Both the position numbers and the translations under genes were made by a program. The notes under the pieces are model-generated. The model was not told the origin of the DNA. It was given only the letters and a program-made list of their open reading frames with translations, and did not search any database. A stretch of 64,000 nucleotides of DNA from a candidate division FCPU426 bacterium (GTDB lineage: Bacteria; Oederibacteriota; Muellerivitia; Muellerivitales; Muellerivitaceae): positions 16,222 through 80,221 of the forward strand of contig JASHNQ010000059.1 of the NCBI GenBank assembly GCA_030041545.1. The letters run 5' to 3'. How positions within the stretch are numbered: position 1 is the first letter of the stretch; each line of letters begins with the position of its first letter. Of the stretch, positions 4,911 to 44,004 are shown in pieces.

Positions 4911-6829
4911 AAAAAATCATGACTGGCCGGGGAAAAGTCCTTTTCAAACTGGGGTTGTGCATTGGCCTAAAGGGCCAAGCGTGGTTGGCCTGTCATCGGC
5001 GAGTCCCTATTCGGGGCTCATTCCTCGCAATGACCGCATTTTTAGTTTTTTCAATTTTATGGGGGCAGGATTCGCCCACGCCTTCCCCCACATCGGCGAC
5101 GCCGGCGGCCGACCTCACCGGCGAATCCGCGCCGGCGACAACGGTTTCCGAGGCCCCCGCCACGCTTTCCAATCCCGAGGCCGTTCCTACGGAAGCCGGC
5201 CAATCCCCCTCCTCCGAACAAAAGCCGTCCCAAGGGGAGGGCGAAAAGGCGCCCGTTATCAGCCGCCCCACGGCCGTGCCCGAGTTCTCCCTGCCCGAAG
5301 TGGTGATCACGGGAGAGAATGAACTGACCATCAGCGCCCAACGGCTGGACCGCAAAGAAAACGACGTCACCTTGGGAAGCCACGACTTGACGGGCGTCGA
5401 CCGGGCCTTCAACGACCTTCCGGGGTTGAGCAAGACCTTCACGGCCCTTGCCACGGAGGAAGCGGGGCCTTCCCAAGATACCGCCTTGGTGCTGCACCTG
5501 GGCGGTGGGATCCCCGGCACCTACGGTGGATGGGGCCTTTTCGGGCAGGAATTCAAGGATATCCAGTACCTCCTGTCGGGGTTTGATTCCACCTGGGGCG
5601 GTGAAGCCACGGCTTCCGGGTTTGACGGGGACAAACGATATGGGTTCGGCGGCCAGATCAGCCTTTTCCCCCAAGCCCCCCAAAACCTGATTTTGTCGGG
5701 CGATTTCAAACGCCTGGACGCCGAACTGCCTTATCAAAACTCCACGCAGGAAACCCATGATGGGATCAACCTCAACCTGGAAGGGCATTGGAAGCTGTCG
5801 GACTTGACCCAGGCCCAACTGAACGTGACAAACCAGGACACCTACCTCGGTTATTGGGACCAATCGGCCCTTACCAACCAGACCCAGGAATGGGAAGGGC
5901 ACTTTAAATTGGTGGCCGACGGCCTGGGCGCCTTTTTCAACCGGTTCACGCTGGACACGGGACTAAGGCACGCCACGTCGGATTTCGCCGTTCCCGCGGC
6001 CAGCGACTACGACTGGGGCTGGCTGGGGGCCCAGGCCTACCTGAAAAGCGGGGAAAATTTGGGGTTGACCCTCAAGCTGCAGGCCCAGGCCGGCGACGGC
6101 CTCAACCTGCCCGCTAAGTTCTACCCGGAGGCCGACTTCATGTGGCGGGTTTTCGGCAACAGCCAGTTGAACCTTTACTGGAAGTCCGACCGATACGTGG
6201 ATAGCTTCAACAAAACTTTCATGGGGGAGGAACACGTCAGCCCGGTGGAAGGGTTCCCCTCGCCCACCGAAGTGACCGGGGAATGGGGTGGCCGGTTCAC
6301 GCAAAAGCTGGCGGAAGCCGTGTTGTTCTCCTTGTCCGCTTCCACGGCCCAAATCCAGGGTTACCACCAATGGACGGACATCAACCCGGCCAACCCCGTC
6401 TTCCTACAGGATTATTCCACCCTGGCCCAAGTGAAGATGAACAAGGCCGCGGCCAACCTTCAATGGAACTTCCAAAAAGACTGGCAGGCCTCTGCCACCT
6501 ATGAGTGGACCCAGGGATTGAACCAGGGCGGAACGCAAAATCTAACCAACCTCCCCGTGAACCAGGGCGTCCTTTCCCTTTACCGGGGCGATGAGACTTG
6601 GGAGGCGCGGTTGGAGCTTCAATTGGCCTCTCCGCGGCAGGCCTTCGCAACCCTCCCGGAAACACTTCCGGCTTACGCCACCCTGGGCCTTGACGCCACC
6701 TACCATTTGAGCAAGACTTTTTCCCTGTGGCTGAACGCGGACAACCTGTGGGGAGAAGCCTACGAGATCCAACCGGGTTATCTGGAACCCGAGTATCACA
6801 TCCGCGGTGGAGTGGAAGTCATCTTCTGA
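4907..6829 (+). CDS. outer-membrane beta-barrel protein, TonB-dependent-receptor-like C-terminus
   Basis: ATGA overlap with the TPR gene. Disordered S/P/T/A/E-rich N-terminus, a VVITG motif, alternating beta-strand pattern, C-terminal ...GGVEVIF ending in Phe. Sits just upstream of exbB-exbD-tonB. Confidence 0.55.
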   Translation: MKKIMTGRGKVLFKLGLCIGLKGQAWLACHRRVPIRGSFLAMTAFLVFSILWGQDSPTPSPTSATPAADLTGESAPATTVSEAPATLSNPEAVPTEAGQSPSSEQKPSQGEGEKAPVISRPTAVPEFSLPEVVITGENELTISAQRLDRKENDVTLGSHDLTGVDRAFNDLPGLSKTFTALATEEAGPSQDTALVLHLGGGIPGTYGGWGLFGQEFKDIQYLLSGFDSTWGGEATASGFDGDKRYGFGGQISLFPQAPQNLILSGDFKRLDAELPYQNSTQETHDGINLNLEGHWKLSDLTQAQLNVTNQDTYLGYWDQSALTNQTQEWEGHFKLVADGLGAFFNRFTLDTGLRHATSDFAVPAASDYDWGWLGAQAYLKSGENLGLTLKLQAQAGDGLNLPAKFYPEADFMWRVFGNSQLNLYWKSDRYVDSFNKTFMGEEHVSPVEGFPSPTEVTGEWGGRFTQKLAEAVLFSLSASTAQIQGYHQWTDINPANPVFLQDYSTLAQVKMNKAAANLQWNFQKDWQASATYEWTQGLNQGGTQNLTNLPVNQGVLSLYRGDETWEARLELQLASPRQAFATLPETLPAYATLGLDATYHLSKTFSLWLNADNLWGEAYEIQPGYLEPEYHIRGGVEVIF

Positions 6830-12502: not shown

Positions 12503-13441
12503 ATGGCCCGCATTGCCGCCATTTTTCCCAATGAAGGCTCCCAGTACGTAGGAATGGCAAAGGAGTTCTATGCGAAATCCCTCACCGTTCGGGACACCTT
12601 TGACAAGGCTGAGAAGCTTTTGGAGCGTAAGATTGCCAAGGTTTGCTTCCTGGGCCCCAAGGAAGAGCAAGACCAACTGGTGAACGCCCACTTGATCACC
12701 TTTTTGTGCGACTTCGCCTTTTTCGATCTTCTCGTGCAAAATCGCCGAAAACCTGAAGTCGTGACCGGCATCGGCGTGGGGGAAGTGTCGGCACTGACAG
12801 CCGCTGAATGCCTACCTTATCCCAACGCCCTGCAATATGTGGTGAAGCGGGCGCAATTGCTGGAAAAATTCAGCCAAAAGGCGGGTGGGGCCGCGCTTTT
12901 CATCACCGGTGTTCCCTTGGAGCAACTCCAGCCCCTTTTGACCCGTGAGGAGGGGGAACTGACCATCACCCAATACTTGGCGCCCGATACCTTTATCGTT
13001 TGGGGGCCCAAGGAAGCCGTGGAATCCCTCCGGGCCGAGGCCCAGGGGATAAGGCAGATCAAAACCAACTTTCAGCCGCCCCGGGGCCCCCTTTTTTCAC
13101 CCAAGGCCGCCGAACTGGAGGCGGATTTAGACCGGCTTTTGACCGAATGCCTGGATGGCAAGCAACTCAACCCCCCCAAAATCACCTTTCACCGCGCCAA
13201 TGATGGGGAATACGTTGGAACCCCCGAGATGGTTCGGGATGTCCTGACCAGACAGTATTCCCGGCCCGTGGATTGGGTCAAGACCGTCCACGCCGTCAAT
13301 TTTCGGGGATTCCGCACATGGGTGGAAGTGGGGCCGGGAAGAATTTACGGCACCTTAGTGCGGAAAATCGATACGGACAACCGGATCACCAACGTGGAAG
13401 ACTTAAAAAGCCTTTCGACCACCGTCAAGGTCACCGGCTGA
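12503..13441 (+). CDS. FabD-like (malonyl-CoA:ACP transacylase fold) protein lacking the catalytic Ser and His
   Basis: FPNEGSQ aligns with FabD FPGQGSQ. GIGVGEVSAL replaces GHSLGEYSAL (Ser->Val). The SH of SHCALM becomes SP. The Arg117 equivalent (VVKRAQLLEKF) is retained. Confidence 0.7.
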   Translation: MARIAAIFPNEGSQYVGMAKEFYAKSLTVRDTFDKAEKLLERKIAKVCFLGPKEEQDQLVNAHLITFLCDFAFFDLLVQNRRKPEVVTGIGVGEVSALTAAECLPYPNALQYVVKRAQLLEKFSQKAGGAALFITGVPLEQLQPLLTREEGELTITQYLAPDTFIVWGPKEAVESLRAEAQGIRQIKTNFQPPRGPLFSPKAAELEADLDRLLTECLDGKQLNPPKITFHRANDGEYVGTPEMVRDVLTRQYSRPVDWVKTVHAVNFRGFRTWVEVGPGRIYGTLVRKIDTDNRITNVEDLKSLSTTVKVTG

Positions 13442-18328: not shown

Positions 18329-18404
<76 letters not shown>

Positions 18405-18460
18405 GAAAACTGTTCTGGCTGGTCTTACCGTCCGGTGGTTAAGTTCCTTGGATGATCCGT

Positions 18461-18537
18461 CGGGGCGTGGCGCAGCCCGGTAGCGCAGTTGCATGGGGTG
18501 CAAAAGGTCGCAGGTTCAAATCCTGCCGCCCCGACCA
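18461..18537 (+). tRNA. tRNA-Pro (anticodon GGG)
   Basis: Acceptor CGGGGCG/CGCCCCG, anticodon loop ATGGGGT, T arm GCAGG-TTCAAAT-CCTGC, encoded CCA. One mismatch at the top of the anticodon stem. Confidence 0.8.
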
Positions 18538-18685
18538 TTTAAAAGGGTCGTTTCTCGGATCTTCGAATCAAAACCTTACTTTTCCCAGTTTCCCCCCCTA
18601 CCACAAATCTTTAAAAAGTCAAAAAAAAGCCCCCTTAATTCAAAAAACTGACAAAACGAACCTTGGGTTTTCATGGAGGTTTCAC

Positions 18686-18961
18686 ATGTTTAACGCTTTC
18701 ACAGGATCAGTCCATGGAAGAGTCCAGGGGGTCGGATTTCGTTATTTTTCCAAGGATTGCGCCGAACAGTTGAATTTAACAGGCTGGGTGCGGAATTTGC
18801 CTGATGGAAGCGTAGAAATATTTGCCAACGGCCCACTGTCGGCGCTGGAACAGTTTATGCAAAGATTAAAAGTGGGTCCCATTGGAAGCCGGGTTGAACA
18901 GACCAAGTTCCAATGGCTGGAAACAACGGAAAGGCTAGAAGGGTTTGAAATCCGAGCTTAA
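18686..18961 (+). CDS. acyP: acylphosphatase
   Basis: VHGRVQGVGFR and GWVRNLPDGSVE signatures. 91 aa. Confidence 0.8.
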   Translation: MFNAFTGSVHGRVQGVGFRYFSKDCAEQLNLTGWVRNLPDGSVEIFANGPLSALEQFMQRLKVGPIGSRVEQTKFQWLETTERLEGFEIRA

Positions 18962-18976
18962 TAGCAAGGTGAGTCC

Positions 18977-19933
18977 ATGGGCTTAAAAAAACGTTTGAAG
19001 GTAAGTTCCACACGGCGGATTATTACGCCGTTGGTCCCCCTGATCGAAAAAGAGACGCCCGCAACCGAATCCAAGTCCTTTGATCGCGTCACCACGGATA
19101 GCCTGAAACTGTATTTTCGCGAGATTTCCAGGGTCAAATTACTCACTGCCCAAGAAGAAGTGGCCTTAGCCAAGCGCATTGAGAAGGGCGACTTGAAGGC
19201 CAAACAGGCATTGATTGCCGCCAACCTCCGCTTGGTCATCAAAGTGGCCAAGAAATACATGAATCAGGGCCTTTCCTTCCAAGATTTGATCGAGGAAGGC
19301 AACTTGGGCCTCATCAAGGCCAGTGAGAAGTTTTCTTGGCGCCGGGGGTTCAAGTTCAGCACTTATGCGACGTGGTGGATCCGCCAGGCCATCACCCGGG
19401 CCCTTTCCAACCAATCACGGACGGTGCGCGTTCCTGTCCATGTTTCCGAGGACATCAACCGTTTTGAACGCATCTCCCGCGACCTCACCCGTAAACTGGG
19501 GCGCGACCCAAGCCTCATTGAGATATCCAAGGCCGGCAAACTGAAATTCGAAAAGATCCATCGCCTACAGCGCTTGGCCCAAAGGAATATATCCTTGGAA
19601 GTCCCGGTGGGGGACGAGGCGAATTCCAAATCCATCGCCGACTTCATCGAAGACAAATCGGTCTGCAGCCCGGCTCAGAATGTCTTTGACCAGTTACGTT
19701 CCGAAAAGCTCAAAAAACTCATCGGCGCGCTCAACGAGAAGGAGCAAAAAGTCATCCTGATGCGCTTCGGTTTTGACCAGGACCTGCCCAAGACACTGGA
19801 ACAGACCGGATCCCTCTTGGGGGTCACCCGCGAGCGGATCCGCCAAATCGAGGAAAAGGCCCTTCAAAAAATCCGCTTCCTGATGAAGTCCAGCAGTGAA
19901 GAATATCGTGAACTTTTAAACGAATTTGTGTAA
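18977..19933 (+). CDS. RNA polymerase sigma factor, sigma-70 family (RpoD/RpoS-like, no region 1.1)
   Basis: Region 2 [14 protein letters not shown], region 3, region 4 [24 protein letters not shown]. Confidence 0.85.
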
Positions 19934-20062
19934 ACTTCCCGCCTGTTAGAAAATACCCAACATCCAAAAGTAAGAAAATTTTAAAAGTGTGAAGGGAGAC
20001 AAAGAACCCTTTTGTCTATTATGTTACCTTTTCACTTTTCATTCCTTAGTTATAAGGAAACC

Positions 20063-20575
20063 ATGGACCTCAAGAACTTCATCCGTGACGTGCAGGATTT
20101 CCCCAAAAAGGGAGTCATCTTCAAGGACATCACTCCTCTTTTAAAACATCCCCAAGCCTTCCGGGAAGTCATCCGCCAGATGGGAGAAAAATATCGGGCT
20201 CAAAAAGTGGATACCATCGTGGCTATGGAGTCCCGGGGCTTCATCCTGGGAGGCGCCTTGGCCGCCCACCTGGGCGTTTCCTTTGTTCCCGTGCGCAAGC
20301 CCGGCAAGCTGCCCTGGAAGACCCTTCGGGAAACCTACGATCTGGAATACGGCAGGGACACCTTGGAAATCCACGAGGATTCCATCGCCCAAGGCGATAG
20401 GGTGCTGGTTTTGGACGACGTTTTGGCCACCGGCGGCACCGCCGCAGCCACTGTCCGGTTGGTGGAAAGAGCCGGGGGCCAGGTTGTGGGGGCCTGTTTC
20501 CTCATTCATTTGGGTTTCCTGAACGGCCATGAAAAATTGAAAAGCATCCCCGTTTTCTCTATACTCCACTACTGA
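20063..20575 (+). CDS. apt: adenine phosphoribosyltransferase
   Basis: PRTase motif VLVLDDVLATGGTAAA. Apt-length protein. Confidence 0.85.
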   Translation: MDLKNFIRDVQDFPKKGVIFKDITPLLKHPQAFREVIRQMGEKYRAQKVDTIVAMESRGFILGGALAAHLGVSFVPVRKPGKLPWKTLRETYDLEYGRDTLEIHEDSIAQGDRVLVLDDVLATGGTAAATVRLVERAGGQVVGACFLIHLGFLNGHEKLKSIPVFSILHY

Positions 20576-20615
20576 TTTTTAAAGGTTTCCTTTACCAAGG
20601 TGTTTTACAAGAAAA

Positions 20616-20692
20616 GGCCCTCGTAGCTCAGTTGGATAGAGCGACCCTTTCCTAAAGGGTAGGTCACGCGTTCGATTCGCGTCGAGGGTACC
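20616..20692 (+). tRNA. tRNA-Arg (anticodon CCT)
   Basis: Acceptor GCCCTCG/CGAGGGT (G1-U72 wobble), D arm GCTC-AGTTGGATA-GAGC, anticodon loop TTCCTAA, T arm ACGCG-TTCGATT-CGCGT, encoded CCA. Confidence 0.8.
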
Positions 20693-20790
20693 ATTCGGAT
20701 GAGGCCTTCCCAATCCGGGAAGGCTTCGATTTCCAGGCATTGTTCAAAGGCGTTCTTCGCCAGAAACCCGTGCCTTCACAAGGACTTTGA

Positions 20791-35109: not shown

Positions 35110-35991
35110 TTAGTGGTAGTAATCGCCCTTGTCCACGAATTGGGATTTGGAGGCATCCCACTGGTAAACCGTGGTCATGCGCCGGAAGGGCCCGGCGAAG
35201 TCGTTGTCCGTCAGCTGGTAGCGTTCCTGGGCCTGCGTCTTCAAATCCGGCGGGTAAAGGACGTCGGTGGTGTTGATGATCTCCAGGGTGCCGTCGTGGT
35301 TCAGGTCCCGGTAAAGGGTGTAGCCCTCCAGCCACACGTTCAGCTCGAGTTCTTCCTTCACGTATTTTTGCACGTCCACCAGTTCGGGACGGTTGTAAAG
35401 CTCGTCCGGAACGCCCTGGAGGGCGTCGGTGACCAGCCGGTAAAAGGTCCTATCACAGCGGCTTCCCCCGCCGTAAGTGCCCACCTCGAAGAAAACGGGC
35501 ATTTCCTTGCCCAGGCTGACCAGGCGGGCGCAGCCGGGGTAACCTTGCCCGTGGAAGAGGTGCCGCCATTCCAGCCCGATTTTGATGTAGATCTCCGAGC
35601 TGCAGTGCCGGATGTCCCATTCGTCGGCGTAATCGGCCGTCAGGAAGGATTGTCCTTCGGCCTTGGAGTACCCCAGGAAGACCAGGGGAACCTCCGCTCC
35701 GTTGGCAGTGAGGGCCGTCAAGGGAATGCCGAACCTTGGGGCCAGCCCCGGGAGCAGCCGCCGCATGGCCACCAGGCGCCGGTGCCGCGAGGCGATGAAG
35801 TACACGTGAGGCTTGACCCGGATACCCCGGATGGCGCTTTGGAGGGATGGGTCCAGTTTGGCGTTGTGCCGGTCCACCCAAACCTGCGACATTTCCAAAC
35901 GGTCCATGGTCTCGTTTTCCGAAATCGCCCGCAAACCTCCGGGGAAAAACGCGCAGGCCAAGAGGATCGATAGGATGAGGGTTCTTTTCAT
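35110..35991 (-). CDS. hypothetical secreted protein
   Basis: Signal peptide MKRTLILSILLACAFFPGGLRA. No motif. Confidence 0.45.
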   Translation of the reverse strand: MKRTLILSILLACAFFPGGLRAISENETMDRLEMSQVWVDRHNAKLDPSLQSAIRGIRVKPHVYFIASRHRRLVAMRRLLPGLAPRFGIPLTALTANGAEVPLVFLGYSKAEGQSFLTADYADEWDIRHCSSEIYIKIGLEWRHLFHGQGYPGCARLVSLGKEMPVFFEVGTYGGGSRCDRTFYRLVTDALQGVPDELYNRPELVDVQKYVKEELELNVWLEGYTLYRDLNHDGTLEIINTTDVLYPPDLKTQAQERYQLTDNDFAGPFRRMTTVYQWDASKSQFVDKGDYYH

Positions 35992-35999
35992 GGACTCCT

Positions 36000-36217
36000 C
36001 CCAAAATTGTTTGAGGGACAATTATAAATGTAAAATGAACAAATAACGAAAAATAGTGAAATGGTTTTTGATGATTTTTCAGTACTGAAAATCTACAAAA
36101 ATGCCAATAAAGAGAATGTCCCTTTTTCAAAAGAACTTCCGGACGTCGTCTTAAACAATGTTACAATATGACTGTACTTATTAATAACTACATACAATTT
36201 ATAACATAGGCAAAGAC
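36000..36217 (+). promoter_or_regulatory. AT-rich leader/promoter region upstream of abiEi (left edge of the island)
   Basis: Sharp GC drop relative to both flanks. Direct TACAAT-containing repeats GTTACAATATGA and ATACAATTTATAA upstream of ATG 36218. Confidence 0.35.
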
Positions 36218-36820
36218 ATGAAAACAGCACCTAAAATCTCTATCCCCAAAACCCTTTTCCAAAAGGGCGTCCTGCGTCCCCGCGACATCCTCCAACAAGG
36301 GATCAGCCGGATGCGCCTGAAAAGGCTGGTGGACCAAGGCGTCCTAGTGCGTGAGGCGCGGGGGGTATACCGCGTTCCCGGCCATGAACCTTCCGAAAAG
36401 GAAAGCCTCGTCCAGGCCTGCGAAAGAGTGCCGGGCGGCATTCTTTGCCTGCTGACGGCGCTCCAATTCCATGGCATGACAACCCAATTCCCCCATGAAA
36501 TCTGGATGGCGATTGACGTGTGGGCCCGCAAGCCCCATGCGGAACATCTTCCCATCCGTTTTGTCCGTGCTTCCGGCAAATCCCTCGCTTCCGAGGTGGA
36601 GGAACACACCGTCCAAGGCGGGCGCATCCGGGTTTATAGCGCGGCGAAAACAGTTGCCGATTGCTTCAAGTACCGGAACAAGATCGGCCTGGACGTGGCG
36701 CTGGAAGCCCTGAAAGCCTTCCAAACCGGCCACAAAGGAAAGATGGATGATCTTTGGAGGAGCGCCCGCGTTTGCCGCGTGTCAAATATCATCCGGCCTT
36801 ATTTGGAGGCCCTGGCTTGA
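36218..36820 (+). CDS. abiEi: AbiEi family antitoxin (type IV TA / abortive infection)
   Basis: N-terminal wHTH region (GISRMRLKRLVDQGVLVREARGVYRV) and C-terminal conserved domain typical of AbiEi_4. Confidence 0.8.
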   Translation: MKTAPKISIPKTLFQKGVLRPRDILQQGISRMRLKRLVDQGVLVREARGVYRVPGHEPSEKESLVQACERVPGGILCLLTALQFHGMTTQFPHEIWMAIDVWARKPHAEHLPIRFVRASGKSLASEVEEHTVQGGRIRVYSAAKTVADCFKYRNKIGLDVALEALKAFQTGHKGKMDDLWRSARVCRVSNIIRPYLEALA

Positions 36821-37685
36821 AGAAAAAAAAAAGATCAAAAACCTCCCAGCTTCTGTGCGTCAGCGGCTCTATAACATCTCCAAAACTCGCAAGGAGGAAT
36901 TCGAATATGTCCTCACACGGTACGCCCTGGAAAGGTTCCTTTACCGCCTGGGCCGGTCAGTCCACCAAAAGAGGTTCGTTTTGAAAGGGGCCATGCTTTT
37001 CCAAGCCTGGTCACCCGAGATCCACCGTATGACCAGGGATTTGGACCTCCTGGATTCCAACAACCATGAAGCCCAAAAGGTCGTCCATGCTATCCGGGAA
37101 GTGTTGAATTCAAAAGTCCCAGATGACGGATTGGTTTTCAACGGTAAGTCGATTAAGTGGGGAGCCATCCGGCAGGGGCAAGCCTATCATGGGGTCCGCC
37201 TTCACTTTAAGGCCAAATTGACCCCGGCGGTCATCCCCCTCCAAGTAGATGTGGGTTTCGGCGACGCGATTGTGCCAAAGCCCAAGCGCATCCGTTACCC
37301 GACCCTTTTGGGTTTCCCATCCCCACATGTCCTGGCTTATGCCAAAGAAACCGTGGTCGCGGAAAAGCTCCATGCCATCGTGCTACTGGGCATGACGAAC
37401 AGCCGCTTGAAGGATTACTTCGACCTGTCGGTGCTCCTGAAAGGCGAAACCCTCGACGCCGACATGCTGGCCCAAGCGATTAAGGCAACGTTCAAGCGCC
37501 GCAGCATGCCCGTTCCCGCCGAACTGCCGATCGGTCTCACGGACGAATTCTCGCACGATCCATCGCAACAGGCGCTATGGCGTGCGTTCGTCAAGAGGAA
37601 CGGACTCGACCTCGAACCTTTGGCCGCCGTCGTGGAGCGACTGCGGACGGCCTTGGGACCGGCATTGAGCCGGGCCGGTCTATGA
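36747..37685 (+). CDS. abiEii: nucleotidyltransferase AbiEii/AbiGii toxin family protein
   Basis: NLPASVRQRLYN...YALERFLYRL N-terminal signature. DLD(L)LD NTase-like motif. First ATG overlaps abiEi by 74 nt; the true start may be a non-ATG codon nearer 36820. Confidence 0.8.
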   Translation: MIFGGAPAFAACQISSGLIWRPWLEEKKKIKNLPASVRQRLYNISKTRKEEFEYVLTRYALERFLYRLGRSVHQKRFVLKGAMLFQAWSPEIHRMTRDLDLLDSNNHEAQKVVHAIREVLNSKVPDDGLVFNGKSIKWGAIRQGQAYHGVRLHFKAKLTPAVIPLQVDVGFGDAIVPKPKRIRYPTLLGFPSPHVLAYAKETVVAEKLHAIVLLGMTNSRLKDYFDLSVLLKGETLDADMLAQAIKATFKRRSMPVPAELPIGLTDEFSHDPSQQALWRAFVKRNGLDLEPLAAVVERLRTALGPALSRAGL

Positions 37686-40600
37686 CAACCGCTTCTTTCG
37701 TATCCATTGACCTGGAAGTCGGCCGCGACAGCGGACGCATCCACCAGTTGGCTGGGGTACATAGCAATGGCATCGCCTCCCTTGCCTTTCCGCCCGGTAC
37801 GCTGTCTGATGCGCTTGATGCCTTGGATCGCCTCGCCGACGGCGCTACATTTGTTATCGGGCACAACCTGATCGCCTTCGACTTGCCGCAGTTGCGCGCG
37901 GCCCAGCCCAATCTGCGGCTACTGGATAAACCCGCGGTTGATACGCTACGCCTCAATCCCCTAGCCTTCCCGCGAAACCCCTACCACCACCTCGTCAAGC
38001 ACTACCAGGACGGCGCCTTGCTCGGCAACCGCCGCAATAATCCATTTTTGGACGCTGAACTCGCCTTGCAAGTCTTTGCCGACCAACACGCCAGCCTGAA
38101 AGCGATGCAGCACACCATGCCCGACTTGTTGCTCGCGTGGCATTGGCTGACAGCCCAGAATGACGGTGTTGGCGGATTTGATCGCTTCTTTACCGAAGTT
38201 CGCGGCACCGGCAAGCCGGATGCGGCACAGGTTGGGGCTGCATTTAGCCGTTTGCTGGACAACACGGCCTGCACACGAGCCAGTGCAAAAATCATCTCCG
38301 AAGCGGCGCAATCCCCCTGGTCTTTGGCCTATGCACTCGCCTGGATATCCGTGGCGGGGGGTAATTCGGTGGTGTCGCCGTGGGTGCGTCACCAGTTCCC
38401 TGAAACTGGACGGTTGATCCGGGCCCTGCGCGACACGCCCTGCGCCGATCCGGCCTGCGCCTGGTGCCGACGCGAACACGACTCTCTGGCCCAGTTGAAG
38501 CAGTGGTACGGCAAGGATTACGACTTTCGCTCCGAGCCGGTGGATAAGTCCAGCGGCCTGCCCTTGCAGCGGGTGATCGTCGAAGCGGCAATTCGCGGCG
38601 AGCACGCGTTAGGCATTTTGCCCACCGGCACCGGTAAGTCGCTGTGTTACCAGGTGCCCGCCCTGTCGCGTTTCGTGCGCACCGGAGCGTTGTCCATCGT
38701 CATCTCGCCATTGGTGGCGCTGATGGAAGACCAAGTAATGGGACTCCGCGAGCGCGGCATCGAAGGCTGCGCGGCGATCAACGGCCTGTTGTCCATGCCC
38801 GAGCGCGCGGACGTGCTGGACCGGGCACGCCTGGGTGATGTCGGCATCCTCCTCATCGCGCCGGAGCAGTTGCGCAACAAGAGCGTGCGAAAAGTTCTGG
38901 CACAGCGCGAGATCGGCGCTTGGATTTTCGACGAGGCCCACTGCCTGTCTAAGTGGGGACAGGATTTTCGCCCCGATTACCGTTATGTCGCCCGCTTCAT
39001 TCGTGAAAGCGCCGAGGCCAGTCCAAGCGGCGAACTGCCGCTGATCCAATGCCTGACCGCCACTGCCAAGCCCGAGGTCGTGGCCGACATCGTGGGCCAC
39101 TTCCGCGAAAGACTTGGTGTGGAGCTGCGCGTGTTCGACGGCGGATCGAAGCGTGACAACCTCGAATTCGATGTGATCGAAACCACCCCCGGCCAAAAAT
39201 TCGACCAAGTCGCCCACCTGATCGAGCGCGACTTGCCCGCCGGAATGTTCGGCGGGGCCATCGTTTACTGCGCCACGCGCAACCGGACGGAAGACCTGGC
39301 CGGTTTTCTGTGCGAAAAAGGGATGGCTGCCGCCCCTTACCACGCGAAATTGAAACCGGAAACCAAGAAGGAGACGCAGAAAGCATTCATTATGGGTACG
39401 CTACGCGTCATCGCGGCGACCAATGCTTTCGGCATGGGGATCGACAAGCCCGACGTGCGTCTTGTCGTCCATGCCGACATTCCCGGCTCGCTGGAAAATT
39501 ATTTGCAGGAGGCAGGCCGCGCCGGGCGTGACCGCGCACAGGCGCGCTGCGTGCTGCTCTACGCCCCCGATGACGTAGAGCGCCAGCACGGCATGTCGGC
39601 GGCCTCTCGCCTGTCGCGGCGCGACATCCAGAGCGTACTGCGCGCCTTGCGCCAGTTGCAGCGCAAGAAGGAACGCGATCAGGCGCTGGTCGCCACTGCC
39701 GGTGAAATCCTGAACGAGAATGAAGAAGGCGAGTTCAAACGCGACGGTGCCACCGACGACACCCGCGTGCGCACAGCCGTCGCGTGGCTGGAGGAAGCCG
39801 GATTGTTGCGCCGCGAGGAAAACACGGTTCAAATCTTCCCTTCGTCGCTCCGTGTCAAAAACCTGGCCGACGCTGAGCGCAAGCTGGCGGGCGTCGATGC
39901 CATATACCGCCAGAAATGCCTGGACCTGGTCCAAATCCTGTTGGCCGCCCCAGCGAATGAAGGACTGTCCACCGACGAACTAATGGCAGCCACCGGCCTT
40001 CATGCCGATGCCCTGCGCGAAACCCTGTTCCTTTTCGACCGCCTGGACATTGCCGGCAACGACACGGCGATGACCGCCTACGTCCACGTCGCGGTCGAAA
40101 ATTCGTCGAAGAAACGTTTTGACGAAGCCTGCGCGTTGGAGCAGGCCGTGATCGCCGCCCTACGGGAAGAAGCACCCGACCTCGGGGCGGGCGACGCCTC
40201 GCCGTTGCACCTGCGCCTGCTGGCCCAGCGGCTGAAAGACCAGGGCTTTCCTGCGCTGCCCCAACGGCTGCGCCAGGTCATCGCTGGGCTGGCGGGTGAC
40301 GGTCGCGACGGCGAGGATGGCAAGGGAAGCCTTACCTTGAAGCGCGGTGCCGATCCCGAGACGATTCATGTCACGCTCAACCGTCCATGGAACACTCTGG
40401 AAAAGATTGCCGAGCGTCGCCGCAGCGCCGCCCGAAGGCTGCTGGAGCATTGGCTGTCCGCCCTGCCGCAAGGTGCACGCGGCGTCGATCAACTGGCGGA
40501 AACCACGCTCGGCAAACTAACCGCCAGCGTCGCGGGCGATGCCATCCTCTCCGCCGAAACCCCGGACATACGCAAGCTAGTCGATCGGGCTCTGCTATGG

Positions 40601-42778
40601 CTGCACGAGCAGGAAGTGCTACGCCTGAACAAGGGGCTGGCCATCTTTCGCGCCGCAATGACTTTACATCTGGAACCCAACTGGAAGTTGCAATTTGAAA
40701 AAAACAACTACCAGCCACTGGCCATGCACTACGACGAACTGACCCGGCAAATCCACATCATGGCGGAATACGCCGAGCTTGGCGTCAAGAAAATGGCCGA
40801 TGCTCTGCGCCTGGCGGTGGACTATTTCCGCCTGTCACGCGAGGAGTTTTGTCGGCGATGGCTGCCGGGCCGCGAAGACGAACTAACCCGCCAGACCACG
40901 CCCCAGTCCTGGGACACCATCGTCGAAACCCTGTCCCGACCTCACCAACGCAGGATCGTCGCCGATGACCGGGAGGACACCAACGTGCTGGTGCTTGCCG
41001 GACCCGGCTCGGGCAAGACCCGCGTGCTCGTCCACCGCATCGCCTACCTAGTGCGTATACGCCGCGAAAACCCCCGGGCCATTCTGGCCCTGGCCTACAA
41101 CCGCCATGCGGCGCTGGAGATCCGCAAGCGATTGATAGAACTCATCGGCGGCGACGCACGCGGCGTCACTGTGCACACCTGCCACGGACTGGCCATGCGC
41201 CTGATGGGTGCGAGCTTTGCAAATCGCAGAGGCGAGGATGCCGACTTCGACGCCGTTCTGAAGGAGGCAACAGCCCTGCTCGAAGGCCACGGCTTGCCGC
41301 CGGAAGATGCCGACGTTCAGCGCGACCGCCTGCTGGCGGGTTTTCGCTGGATATTGGTGGACGAGTACCAGGATATCGACCCCGGCCAGTACGCGCTGAT
41401 CTCGGCGCTGGCTGGGCGCAAGCGCAACGACGAGGATGGACGCCTCAACCTGTTCGCGGTGGGCGATGACGATCAGAACATCTACGCTTTTGCGGGTGCC
41501 TCGGTAGAGTTCATCCGCCGCTTTACCGAGGACTACAAGGCCAAAACGGAACTCCTGGTCGAAAACTACCGCAGCACACGCCACATCATCGACGCCGCCA
41601 ACCGCGTGATAATCCGTGCTGCGTCGCGGATGAAGACTGAAGCGATCCGAGTAAACACCGCCCGCGCCCAATGCGCGCCTGGCGGCGATTGGCAACGGAT
41701 CGACCCTGTGGTACAGGGCCGCGTACAGATACTCCCCACTGGCAACAGCGCGCAACAGCAGGCACTGGCCATCTACACCGAACTGCGGCGCATGATGGCG
41801 CTTGGCCTCGATCCAGCCAAAACGGCGGTCATCGCCCGCCAGTGGAAATTCCTCGATCCCCTGCGCGCGGCGCTGGAAGCCGCCGATATCCCCGTCGCTA
41901 TGGCCGATGAAGAGGCGCCACTCCTGTGGCGTTTACGCGAAACGCAGGCGCTGCTGGCTTTTCTCGATGAACGGCAAACAGCTTCCGGCTCCCGGTTGCT
42001 CAAAGCGGATGACCTTCAATCCTGGCTGGCAACGCAGGACAGCACGGGCTGGTGGCCCATGCTCAGCGAAGCCATAGCCGCCTTTGCCGAGGACACCCAG
42101 GGTGCGGAAGTATTGCTTGCCTCCTTCCGCGACTGGTTGGCCGAATGGGGCCGCGCTAGCCGCCGCCTGCAAACCGGCATCCTGCTTCTGACCGCGCACC
42201 GCGCTAAAGGGCTGGAGTTCGACCATGTGTTCATTCTTGACGGCGAATGGCAGGCCGGCAAGAACGAGGATCAGGATGGGGCGCGACGCCTCTATTACGT
42301 CGCCATGACCCGCGCCCGCGCCACCCTGGCGCTGGCGCGCATGAATACGGGGAATGCCATGCTCGATGGCCTGGCTGATCATCCTGCCCTGTTGCGCCGT
42401 CCTCTAACGCAATGGTTGCCACCCCCCGGACCAATGGAACGCTATTATCGGATGCCCGGACTGGAAGAGATCAACCTCGGTTTCGCGGGTCGGCAGGACG
42501 TAGGCCACCGGGTGCACCGCGCCATCGCCAGCCTACGCATTGGTGATGCGCTGCGCTACGTCGGGGACGAACTGGGTCATCGGCTCGAAAACACGTCCGG
42601 CGTGACCGTCGGGCGCTTGTCGAAAAATTTCGAACCGCCGCCCGGATTGCGTTGCCAAGCGGCTCGGGTGCGCGCCATTCTGGTCTGGCGCAAATCTGAC
42701 AGCGCGCCGGAATATCAGGCCCAATGCCGCAGTGAAACTTGGGAAGTCGTTCTGCCGGAACTGGTTTTCGCACCTTGA
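37682..42778 (+). CDS. fusion protein: DnaQ-like 3'-5' exonuclease + RecQ-family helicase + UvrD/PcrA-family helicase (WRN-like with extra SF1 helicase)
   Basis: ATG overlaps the abiEii stop (ATGA at 37682-37685). Exo motifs FVSIDLEV and GHNLIAFDLPQL. RecQ motifs ILPTGTGKSLCYQVPAL, DEAHCLSKWGQDFRPDY, LTATA, HADIPGSLENYLQEAGRAGRD. UvrD motifs LAGPGSGKTRVLVHRIAYLV, ILVDEYQDIDP, VGDDDQNIYAFAG, ENYRST, LLTAHRAKGLEFDHVFI, YYVAMTRAR. Confidence 0.85.
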   Translation: MTTASFVSIDLEVGRDSGRIHQLAGVHSNGIASLAFPPGTLSDALDALDRLADGATFVIGHNLIAFDLPQLRAAQPNLRLLDKPAVDTLRLNPLAFPRNPYHHLVKHYQDGALLGNRRNNPFLDAELALQVFADQHASLKAMQHTMPDLLLAWHWLTAQNDGVGGFDRFFTEVRGTGKPDAAQVGAAFSRLLDNTACTRASAKIISEAAQSPWSLAYALAWISVAGGNSVVSPWVRHQFPETGRLIRALRDTPCADPACAWCRREHDSLAQLKQWYGKDYDFRSEPVDKSSGLPLQRVIVEAAIRGEHALGILPTGTGKSLCYQVPALSRFVRTGALSIVISPLVALMEDQVMGLRERGIEGCAAINGLLSMPERADVLDRARLGDVGILLIAPEQLRNKSVRKVLAQREIGAWIFDEAHCLSKWGQDFRPDYRYVARFIRESAEASPSGELPLIQCLTATAKPEVVADIVGHFRERLGVELRVFDGGSKRDNLEFDVIETTPGQKFDQVAHLIERDLPAGMFGGAIVYCATRNRTEDLAGFLCEKGMAAAPYHAKLKPETKKETQKAFIMGTLRVIAATNAFGMGIDKPDVRLVVHADIPGSLENYLQEAGRAGRDRAQARCVLLYAPDDVERQHGMSAASRLSRRDIQSVLRALRQLQRKKERDQALVATAGEILNENEEGEFKRDGATDDTRVRTAVAWLEEAGLLRREENTVQIFPSSLRVKNLADAERKLAGVDAIYRQKCLDLVQILLAAPANEGLSTDELMAATGLHADALRETLFLFDRLDIAGNDTAMTAYVHVAVENSSKKRFDEACALEQAVIAALREEAPDLGAGDASPLHLRLLAQRLKDQGFPALPQRLRQVIAGLAGDGRDGEDGKGSLTLKRGADPETIHVTLNRPWNTLEKIAERRRSAARRLLEHWLSALPQGARGVDQLAETTLGKLTASVAGDAILSAETPDIRKLVDRALLWLHEQEVLRLNKGLAIFRAAMTLHLEPNWKLQFEKNNYQPLAMHYDELTRQIHIMAEYAELGVKKMADALRLAVDYFRLSREEFCRRWLPGREDELTRQTTPQSWDTIVETLSRPHQRRIVADDREDTNVLVLAGPGSGKTRVLVHRIAYLVRIRRENPRAILALAYNRHAALEIRKRLIELIGGDARGVTVHTCHGLAMRLMGASFANRRGEDADFDAVLKEATALLEGHGLPPEDADVQRDRLLAGFRWILVDEYQDIDPGQYALISALAGRKRNDEDGRLNLFAVGDDDQNIYAFAGASVEFIRRFTEDYKAKTELLVENYRSTRHIIDAANRVIIRAASRMKTEAIRVNTARAQCAPGGDWQRIDPVVQGRVQILPTGNSAQQQALAIYTELRRMMALGLDPAKTAVIARQWKFLDPLRAALEAADIPVAMADEEAPLLWRLRETQALLAFLDERQTASGSRLLKADDLQSWLATQDSTGWWPMLSEAIAAFAEDTQGAEVLLASFRDWLAEWGRASRRLQTGILLLTAHRAKGLEFDHVFILDGEWQAGKNEDQDGARRLYYVAMTRARATLALARMNTGNAMLDGLADHPALLRRPLTQWLPPPGPMERYYRMPGLEEINLGFAGRQDVGHRVHRAIASLRIGDALRYVGDELGHRLENTSGVTVGRLSKNFEPPPGLRCQAARVRAILVWRKSDSAPEYQAQCRSETWEVVLPELVFAP

Positions 42779-42828
42779 TCGGCGGTGCACAAGTCGCACG
42801 AAATTAACCTGACTTTCGCAACTAAAGA

Positions 42829-42912
42829 GTGTGACCAAATAGGTTTTTTGGCATGCCCGTGGGGCGATTAAGGAAAAGCCAAGGATGAAAACGGCTAAAT
42901 ACTTTTTCATAA
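42829..42912 (-). pseudogene. orphan duplicate of the signal-peptide coding segment of the downstream Thr/Pro-rich protein gene
   Basis: About 84 nt with about 90% identity to 43651-43733. Encodes MKKYLAVFILGFSLIAPRACQKTYLVT against MKKYLAVFILGFSLTAPWACKRTYLVT. Downstream reading frame is antisense to the helicase 3' end. Confidence 0.45.
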
Positions 42913-42940
42913 TGGAATGGCCCTATCGGGAGGGCCTGGC

Positions 42941-43732
42941 TTATACGGAAATGGCGGAAGAACCCACCTGCCATTGGACCGGCAGGTTCATCAGTGGCAC
43001 GACGACGGCCACGTACCCGTACGGTATTAGGGGTGCGGGAGTCGAGGTTAGCTCAGAGTAAACCAAAAAAACACTAACTGTCACTTGGGTGGCGTTCCAA
43101 CAAACGCTCAAAACTCCGACGCCAGTGGTGGGGTTGGTCGGAGGCTCGTATACAAGAACCATTTGGGTGGAAAAATCCACGGCCGGGGGCGTGGAGGACC
43201 CATAAATCGACTGCCAGGCGGCTTGATTGGTAATGACCAGGGTCGTTCCTGAAACTGGTTGACCGGGCGCAATGGGGACAAAGTCACCGGCGGTGAGGGG
43301 GGCGTAAGGGACGTTCCAAGTGGGCATGGAGACCGACGTGAATCCGCAATTGGTGGCGATCGGGGTGAAGGTAACTGTTGGTGTGGAAGTCGTCGTAGGC
43401 GTATTGGTCCAAGTGGGGGTAGGGGTGGGTGGGACCTGGGTATTGGTCGGCGAGGGAGTCGGGGTGGCGGTGGAAGTAAAGCTTGGTGTAAAAGTGGAAA
43501 GGGTGGAAGGCGTAAAGGTGGGCGTGGAAGTGGGCGTGGGCGATGGCGCGGCCGTTATTGAAGTCGTCAGGAAATAATAAGTGTAAATGGGGGAAGGCGA
43601 AAAACTAGGCGTGGGCGATGGTGTGGCCGCCATTGAAGTCGGCGACAGGGGTGTGACCAAATAGGTTCTTTTGCATGCCCATGGTGCGGTTAAGGAAAAG
43701 CCAAGGATGAAGACGGCTAAATATTTTTTCAT
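42941..43732 (-). CDS. secreted Thr/Pro-rich repetitive protein
   Basis: Signal peptide, long TPTPT/STPT low-complexity linker, beta-rich C-terminal domain. Confidence 0.55.
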   Translation of the reverse strand: MKKYLAVFILGFSLTAPWACKRTYLVTPLSPTSMAATPSPTPSFSPSPIYTYYFLTTSITAAPSPTPTSTPTFTPSTLSTFTPSFTSTATPTPSPTNTQVPPTPTPTWTNTPTTTSTPTVTFTPIATNCGFTSVSMPTWNVPYAPLTAGDFVPIAPGQPVSGTTLVITNQAAWQSIYGSSTPPAVDFSTQMVLVYEPPTNPTTGVGVLSVCWNATQVTVSVFLVYSELTSTPAPLIPYGYVAVVVPLMNLPVQWQVGSSAISV

Positions 43733-44004
43733 ATCGGCATCCTGCGCTGAGACATACATTTTTAAGCTTATAGACGGTCGTGTCAAGTTCGGCCGCGATC
43801 CATGGAGTCCACGACCAGCTATCGAACCTAAAAAAACGCAATTTCAGGGCCTTTGTATCATTAAACTTCCATCGCTTTCGCTTACGCCTTTTCCGGCTGG
43901 AACCAGCTGAGTACACAAAGTAAGTCGAAAATGTCTTGAAAAAGAATTCGGTTTACTTCGTGGTCTTCGTGTACTTCGTGGTGAGAGAGGTTTTGAAACA
44001 GGTT

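Follow-up and report, generated by a model that had tools for sequence, protein, structure and literature searches.

We analysed a stretch of 64,000 nucleotides (nt) from a candidate division FCPU426 bacterium (contig JASHNQ010000059.1; hereafter, the window), in which abiEi and abiEii, the genes of an AbiE toxin-antitoxin (TA) pair, are followed on the plus strand by a gene encoding a giant helicase of 1,698 amino acids (aa), the trio being flanked by minus-strand housekeeping genes. On balance, we read this locus as two independent modules, the AbiE pair and an autonomous helicase, that have been joined in one operon and were acquired horizontally. An earlier note on the same DNA had proposed a dedicated three-gene defence module in which helicase and AbiE are linked as sensor and effector or through modulation of the toxin, but such a system is unsupported because both modules are self-sufficient elsewhere, where they mostly occur apart. 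The features on which the argument turns are the following.

36018..44002, no strand: inserted segment of 7,985 bp, missing at the same site in relatives
36156..36217, plus strand: probable abiE promoter/operator in the AT-rich leader, with a TACAAT box and the palindrome TGTACTTATTAATAACTACA (at 36180-36200)
36218..36820, plus strand: abiEi, 200 aa, winged helix-turn-helix (wHTH) regulator/antitoxin of the 'type A' lineage, from Pfam and PADLOC matches
36823..36832, plus strand: A10 homopolymer, by which TTG 36817, the canonical start of abiEii, falls outside the frame of the gene body
36828..37685, plus strand: body of abiEii, predicted nucleotidyltransferase toxin, chimeric; start candidates are 36747, 36855 and, after slippage, TTG 36817
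37320..37365, plus strand: recombination crossover within abiEii, in the conserved AEKLHA region, between a type-A 5' part and a type-B 3' part
37682..42778, plus strand: giant multidomain helicase gene, 1,698 aa, whose ATG overlaps the abiEii stop as ATGA

The linkage of the three genes is not an accident of this contig. We surveyed 112 loci of the helicase family, gathered from genomes, metagenomes and exact-protein look-ups, 103 of them with 600 nt or more of sequence before the helicase gene. The full order abiEi-abiEii-helicase with the ATGA overlap occurs among them only in the window, in L081-83 (P0003), and in L085, where the helicases are, respectively, 84% and 82% identical to that of the window and where the flanks of the units are unrelated. 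The arrangement exceeds chance, since the same 4-nt overlap is found in independent genomic contexts, and this recurrence upholds the earlier description of the three genes as operon-like and translationally coupled. The placement of the helicase start at ATG 37682 also stands, as this is the first start supported by homologues; the in-frame ATG at 37577, inside abiEii, gives an open reading frame (ORF) of 1733 aa. The length of the protein, earlier put at 1684 aa, had to be corrected. Two further loci, L091 (79% identity, ATGA) and L098 (78%, GTGA), are the only ones in which abiEi is coupled straight to the helicase gene without abiEii. The helicase retains its native 'MTT...' start in both, and abiEii was therefore cleanly excised between two overlap junctions. 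The abiEi DNA is ~80% identical among L081, L085, L091, and L098, which matches the divergence of the helicases and points to common descent of the linkage.

Two observations concern the surroundings of these units. The AbiE-helicase unit of L081 lies between a Mn2+ riboswitch accompanied by a GDT1 gene (6162-6340) and a tRNA gene (13189-13261), a class of gene that typically serves as an island insertion site. No integrase was found near this unit, and an Rfam search of the related loci returned only the Mn riboswitch and the tRNA flanking L081. A non-coding element of ~190 nt, with the hairpin GCCCAACCGAGAACGGTTGGGC at its end, follows the helicase gene in L085 (9602-9789) and precedes abiEi in L098 (124-311; 83% identity), with a partial copy upstream of abiEi in the Pseudomonas-type locus L177 (5545-5612). 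It has no match in Rfam and might mark the border of a mobile unit or be a small RNA.

The helicase does not depend on this linkage. About 100 of the 112 family loci are without AbiE, and the AbiE-free copies are not confined to remote relatives: those of P0002, P0006, P0008, and P0011, at 82-84% identity, are interleaved in the same clade as the linked ones, intact and solitary, with housekeeping genes on either side. The history of one of them can be traced. The P0002 helicase gene sits between yceG and ftsE (locus L165), and the ~90 nt upstream of it align with the 3' end of abiEii in exact register (48 of 90 nt identical, against a background of ~18%), the relic reading 'LAAITE*LRTVLELAL' where abiEii reads 'LAAVVERLRTALGPAL'. 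The ancestor of this copy was thus linked to AbiE, and the helicase gene has stayed intact after AbiE was lost. Local DNA alignment gave no significant AbiE remnant before the other AbiE-free helicases, the fixed-register relic being found in L165 only. At L126, we saw weaker in-register hints of an abiEii relic.

AbiE, for its part, does not depend on the helicase. The helicase-linked AbiEii, which we call type B, is 88-92% identical to common proteobacterial AbiE (Pseudomonas, Dechloromonas). Since these forms occur as plain two-gene units, the AbiE found with the helicase does not represent a specialised lineage. Type-B AbiE is a two-gene unit in six P. aeruginosa-type contexts and never has the helicase behind it there; the type-B context (L176-L181) has a 144-aa ORF, a serine recombinase, ParB/RepB, and DUF499 downstream, and variable genes upstream. 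Type-A pairs (L170-L173) adjoin a backbone of ribbon-helix-helix, TraG, and integrase genes, and carry cargo other than the helicase behind them, namely a Druantia-like DruA with further genes in one case and GrpE with an Hsp70-like gene in others. AbiE pairs of both types sit where a mobile-element backbone ends, and the cargo to one side of them varies.

The horizontal acquisition of the locus is shown by phylogeny and by an empty site. The blastn homology of the window to its relatives ends at 36017 and restarts at 44003. In two relatives, L175 (MutL 87% identical) and L174 (81%), the genes are arranged as MutL-MiaA-NUDIX-293aa-~460aa-SppA-640aa-peptidase, with a 103-nt spacer in place of the inserted 7,985 bp. 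The insertion comprises abiEi, abiEii, the helicase gene, and one gene for a secreted protein; the island had been placed at 36000-42830, and its end has to be moved ~1.2 kb further. The MutL of the window has close relatives in metagenome-assembled genomes only, at 87-52% identity, and is at most 43% identical to MutL of any named phylum. The giant protein, which is identical to the NCBI-annotated P0001 (1698 aa), has full-length homologues at 60-84% identity, mostly in Betaproteobacteria, and reaches 84% with betaproteobacterial proteins (e.g., from Rubrivivax, Azoarcus, and Pseudoduganella). This identity, together with the empty site in relatives, demonstrates a recent transfer between phyla. 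We rejected composition as a sign of transfer. The leader is AT-rich, as had been noticed (GC 0.33-0.35 over 35950-36249 and ~0.33 for 36018-36217), and the total GC of the big gene (0.625) is the highest among large ORFs. Its GC at third codon positions (GC3), however, is no outlier, being 0.73 against 0.68 +/- 0.08 for the other genes, i.e., within one standard deviation. The earlier deduction of transfer from a GC-rich gene was therefore right in its outcome and in the total GC, but the compositional signal is weak, and the lack of a GC3 difference had been named beforehand as a finding that would speak against the proposal. We found no integrase, transposase, or convincing target-site duplication at the insertion borders, and an Rfam search of the island gave no match.

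The first two genes were correctly recognised as abiEi and abiEii. AbiEi matches Pfam AbiEi_4 (1.9e-12) and, over the full model length (aa 11-199), the PADLOC AbiEi model (5.7e-76), and has both the COG5340/AbiEi_4 wHTH N-terminus and the C-terminal antitoxin domain of AbiE. AbiEii matches Pfam AbiEii (1.4e-43) and PADLOC (7.1e-100), the match opening at 'KKIKNLPASV'. It has the DUF1814/PF08843 nucleotidyltransferase domain with motifs I-IV: KGA-x15-DLD, AEKLHA, and KDYFD are all there, and the G-A of motif I is common to the homologues. The ~60 nt before abiEi hardly differ from those of the type-A loci L170, L171, and L173, and conservation stops further upstream. By analogy with the AbiE system of S. 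agalactiae (PMC3985639), these ~60 nt are probably the promoter and the AbiEi operator. In that system, AbiEi autoregulates by repression at inverted repeats of the promoter, the genes overlap by 4 nt, and GTP is bound (Dy et al. 2014, PMC3985639); AbiE is also able to stabilise mobile elements (PMC3985639). The window resembles it in the succession of an AbiEi_4 wHTH protein and a PF08843 nucleotidyltransferase with motifs I-IV, in the palindrome of its AT-rich putative promoter, and in its location on mobile DNA. It differs in three respects: the coupling of a third gene to abiEii, the recombinant nature of abiEii, and the start of the latter at the 4-nt overlap, which the A10 run puts out of frame.

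This start deserves a closer description. The window reads TTGAAG, A10, and GATC, where TTG 36817 overlaps the abiEi stop and where a run of A11 or A8 would be needed to keep the frame. The homologues in L170/L171 have an in-frame ATGA overlap followed by MTKTKIKNIP, so that the in-frame 4-nt abiEi/abiEii overlap typical of AbiE is missing from the window because of the A10 run. PGAP places the start at GTG 36855 (P0122, 276 aa), and the sole in-frame ATG is at 36747. The break may have arisen in the assembly, may reflect genuine decay of the toxin gene, or may point to expression that depends on slippage.

The abiEii gene is also a mosaic. Its DNA, like that of abiEi, shares 45-60% identity with L081/L085 up to two-thirds of its length, and from ~37365 to ~42700 the value is 73-90%. 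At the crossover itself, identity to L081/L085 rises from 38-64% to 73-89%, and identity to the type-A loci L170/L171 shows the opposite pattern. In the protein, residues 1-168 of AbiEii share 69-82% identity with the type-A proteins P0123/125/126, and residues 169-285 share 60-83% with type-B proteins (L081, L085, P0144, P0164). Type A has contributed motifs I and II, and type B motifs III and IV. These patterns identify the window AbiEii, as judged from alignments, as a recombinant of two AbiE lineages. The window AbiEi is only ~47-50% identical in aa sequence to the AbiEi of L081, L085, L091, and L098.

The third gene encodes a single chain with four predicted domains and a middle region without recognisable family.

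37682..38560, plus strand: N-terminal domain, aa 1-293, with a DEDD exonuclease-like fold and a helical region that holds four Cys (197, 254, 259, 262)
38561..39730, plus strand: RecQ-like helicase core of superfamily 2 (SF2), aa 294-683, from Pfam, NCBIfam, PADLOC, and motifs
39731..40942, plus strand: middle region, aa 684-1087, of no recognisable family, strongly conserved within the helicase family
40943..42337, plus strand: UvrD-like helicase of superfamily 1 (SF1), aa 1088-1552, from Pfam, PADLOC, and motifs
42338..42775, plus strand: C-terminal beta-barrel, aa 1553-1698, HIRAN-like

The protein had been described as an exonuclease-RecQ-UvrD fusion. The two helicase parts, with their intact ATPase motifs, bear this out, and the exonuclease does so at the level of the fold only. 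The RecQ-like core matches Pfam DEAD (1.9e-27) and Helicase_C (1.9e-20), keeps the GTGKS, DEAH, and QEAGRAGR motifs, and is of the RecQ type, with 285 bits to NCBIfam recQ_fam TIGR00614 (cut-off 219.8). It is not a true RecQ orthologue: the TIGR01389 recQ equivalog gives 330 bits, under its cut-off of 640, and no RQC or HRDC domain is matched in Pfam. Among PADLOC models, its best hit is DpdF (1.6e-108, 362 bits, aa 296-683), and PsyrT scores 2.2e-84. The UvrD-like module matches Pfam UvrD-helicase (5.8e-41), AAA_19 (1.4e-25), and UvrD_C (1.9e-19), as well as PADLOC GajB (7.8e-53). Its motifs GPGSGKT, DEYQD, and VAMTRA are intact, as in SF1A domains of the UvrD/Rep/PcrA kind, and it is a paralogue of these proteins because the UvrD, PcrA, and Rep equivalog cut-offs are not reached. 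The middle region of ~400 aa gives at most sub-threshold hints of winged helices (WH_Lhr E 0.23, DprA_WH E 1.5). The C-terminal barrel recalls HIRAN, a small beta-barrel domain that binds DNA 3'-OH ends. The N-terminal domain has no match in Pfam or NCBIfam, and reaches E 0.25 at best against PDB sequences, yet the DnaQ-like fold and four acidic residues expected of a DEDDh enzyme are recognisable in the structural model. DEDDh 3'-5' exonucleases have a catalytic His (or Tyr) in motif III. The corresponding H-x4-D is not present here, and an invariant Asn (N119-x4-D124) takes its place in 12 of 12 aligned homologues.

This architecture sets the protein apart from the systems that it resembles. 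With Hna, Hhe, Hachiman HamAB, and Gabija GajAB, helicase-nuclease defence systems of one or two proteins, it shares a large ATP-dependent helicase and a patchy spread in defence islands, as well as, presumably, a nuclease and the sensing of DNA ends or damage. Similarity to GajB is seen in the UvrD part, and to a region of HamB in the C-terminal barrel. The giant protein differs from all of them in combining two motors (SF2 and SF1) with DEDD-like and HIRAN-like domains in one chain, and neither GajA, HamA, nor another partner is encoded in the insertion. The RecQ-like core is strong against the PsyrT and DpdF models of PsyrTA (RqlHI) and Dpd, but the match is limited to aa 294-683, and the island has no PsyrA/DprA-like antitoxin and no dpd 7-deazaguanine genes (dpdA-K). 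Exonuclease-helicase fusions of the WRN or S. aureus DinG type differ in their catalytic His, for which the giant protein has the invariant Asn, and in having neither its second helicase nor its HIRAN-like domain; RQC and HRDC are missing from the giant protein.

The family is large. A profile search with the N-terminal domain recovered 1,060 clusters (50% identity) at E <= 1e-10; among the best 150 of these, many representatives are of ~1,700-1,900 aa and the rest range from 154 to ~1,400 aa, the shorter ones being assumed to be fragments from short metagenome contigs. Full-length copies were found on 24 plasmid or chromid records and on none of the phage records. PADLOC v2 has no full-length model for the family. 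Literature searches on AbiE with RecQ/UvrD and on the architecture of the giant protein returned nothing specific and no description of the family. No Pfam family recurs more than twice among the 38 co-directional upstream ORFs, at least 12 of which match PADLOC families (Hhe, PDC-S01/05/23/37, AbiE), and TerY-P-like, HNH/YhcG, and WYL/Cas6 genes are further neighbours. The giant helicase behaves as a mobile gene associated with defence islands and probably has a defensive role. With this architecture and its presence in many phyla, on plasmids, and in defence-island settings, the family offers a concrete candidate for a defence or anti-plasmid system that is new and consists of one gene.

A few of these neighbourhoods were looked at individually. 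In L166 (1-5700), an Azoarcus-like copy (P0008) adjoins a TerD/VWA/PP2C/kinase cluster of TerY-P-like composition. The Thiothrix plasmid pTfr153 (L182; 6455-6700 and 15493-17100) encodes a family member of 58.8% identity that is preceded by an 81-aa helix-turn-helix gene and lies near a WYL-domain regulator and Cas6. A 'RecQ / UvrD / 3'-5' exonuclease' trio on a Nostoc plasmid was considered as a split version of the giant protein, but the three are apparently fragments of one gene, the 'exonuclease' being its UvrD_C piece, and we did not use them as evidence.

We propose the following scenario for the function and assembly of the locus. The first module is an ordinary AbiE pair, a type IV TA and abortive-infection system, in which AbiEi would be the wHTH autorepressor and antitoxin and AbiEii the toxin, a GTP-dependent nucleotidyltransferase. 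The second module, a single chain of ~1,700 aa with DEDD exonuclease-like, RecQ-like SF2, UvrD-like SF1, and HIRAN-like parts, probably acts alone, without an AbiE partner. Its HIRAN-like barrel and two 3'-5' motors may engage DNA 3' ends that are free or aberrant, for instance on linear DNA entering the cell or on replication intermediates, after which the helicase would unwind the bound DNA and the DEDD-like domain might be the effector that degrades it. Assembly would have involved 1) the arrival, in one sub-clade (at least 78% identity), of the helicase gene immediately after abiEii, stop and start codon overlapping by 4 nt, so that its transcription and translation would be driven from the AbiEi-repressed abiE promoter; 2) the spread of the AbiE-helicase unit by horizontal transfer; and 3) in the window, recombination between an incoming unit (the 3' third of abiEii and the helicase gene) and another AbiE lineage, which would have yielded a type-A promoter and type-A abiEi followed by a chimeric abiEii and the helicase gene. 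Seen in this way, the locus clearly illustrates how defence modules come together in nature, by operon fusion behind a TA promoter and transfer between phyla, by recombination of AbiE lineages into a chimeric toxin, and by stepwise loss of the toxin with the regulator being kept. Three arrangements occur naturally (helicase alone, AbiEi-helicase, AbiEi-AbiEii-helicase), and with them functional coupling can be tested directly.

A bolder version of this scenario is conceivable, although we consider it rather doubtful. The AbiE promoter and AbiEi, whether AbiEii is present or not, would have become an obligate control module of the helicase in the clade of at least 78% identity. This would make a new, two-armed immune system whose arms are co-induced on derepression, and the helicase family would be a new and widespread single-gene defence against mobile genetic elements. 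The two arms would then be a dual-motor helicase/exonuclease that senses 3' ends and an abortive-infection nucleotidyltransferase.

A number of points weigh against a fusion of independent modules, or against the roles that we give them. First, the fusion was kept through ~20% DNA divergence, several transfers, and recombination, which hints at selection for the linkage and not at mere adjacency. Second, DarHTG and ietHAS provide an experimental precedent, being TA-type defence systems to which a helicase was added that is essential (PMC13069673). Third, the sample of the close clade is small, with ~13 loci of usable upstream sequence. Fourth, the nuclease activity of the DEDD-like domain is uncertain because N119 replaces the canonical His. 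Fifth, the defensive role of the helicase family is one that we infer.

In one alternative, the three genes would form a genuine tripartite defence system, in which the helicase senses foreign DNA and licenses AbiEii, or co-regulates its toxicity, by analogy with DarHTG and ietHAS. The preservation of the 4-nt overlap in three lineages, the movement of the unit as a whole into unrelated sites, and the survival of the linkage after recombination swapped the AbiE front all fit such a system, and the known examples likewise have a TA defence pair and an extra helicase gene in one operon (PMC13069673). Their helicase is small, system-specific, and essential, whereas that of the window is giant and mostly alone, and AbiEii can be lost. 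The helicase family is neither constantly found with the TA pair nor specific to it, being mostly solitary even at 82-84% identity, and the linked AbiE lineage, mostly without helicase, shows no sign of specialisation. The precise deletion of AbiEii in L091/L098 beside an intact helicase, and the canonical AbiEii start that is out of frame in the window, argue in the same direction. We therefore regard a tripartite system as unlikely.

The losses of AbiEii could also mean that AbiEi has been co-opted as a dedicated regulator or antitoxin-like partner of the helicase while AbiEii is being lost, much as WYL/BrxR-type regulators accompany diverse defence genes. In L091/L098, AbiEi is translationally coupled to the helicase without AbiEii, and its ~80% DNA identity to the AbiEi of L081/L085 indicates stable inheritance. 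The loss of the canonical AbiEii start in the window and the conserved putative promoter/operator upstream of abiEi would also be expected from co-option. Against this, most family members are without AbiEi and no single regulator family recurs before them, the catalytic motifs of the window AbiEii are intact, and the window AbiEi belongs to another lineage, which argues against a specific protein-protein partnership. We give co-option no better prospects than the tripartite system. The least likely alternative is that the giant protein is an accessory enzyme of DNA repair or replication restart and AbiE an addiction module stabilising the island: RecQ, UvrD, DEDD exonuclease, and HIRAN are all classical genome-maintenance domains, many copies lie between housekeeping genes without other defence genes, and AbiE can indeed stabilise mobile elements, but the family is spread patchily over many phyla with near-identical copies in unrelated hosts, the close relatives of the host have no such gene at the site, about one-third of the upstream neighbours are defence or candidate-defence proteins, and the models that give the RecQ and UvrD parts their highest scores are those of defence paralogues, namely DpdF, PsyrT, and GajB.

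The fusion of two independent modules thus remains the reading that we prefer, and what is left to describe is the part of the insertion that lies outside the operon.

42829..42918, minus strand: cut-off duplicate of the 5' end of the secreted-protein gene (ribosome-binding site and signal peptide), abutting the 3' end of the helicase gene
42941..43732, minus strand: gene for a Thr/Pro-rich secreted or lipoprotein-like product of 263 aa, from ORF and translation, inside the insertion

The 263-aa product has no Pfam match, and its gene is missing from the relatives. We attribute to this gene the GC-skew spike at 43001-44000. Its duplicated 5' end forms a direct repeat of 90 nt (42829-42918 and 43651-43740, 89% identical), the left copy of which is truncated just past the helicase stop. 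This suggests that the helicase unit landed in or beside a tandem paralogue of the secreted-protein gene. Elsewhere in the window, at 18329-20693, there are two tRNA-Pro genes and one tRNA-Arg gene, which are unrelated to the island.

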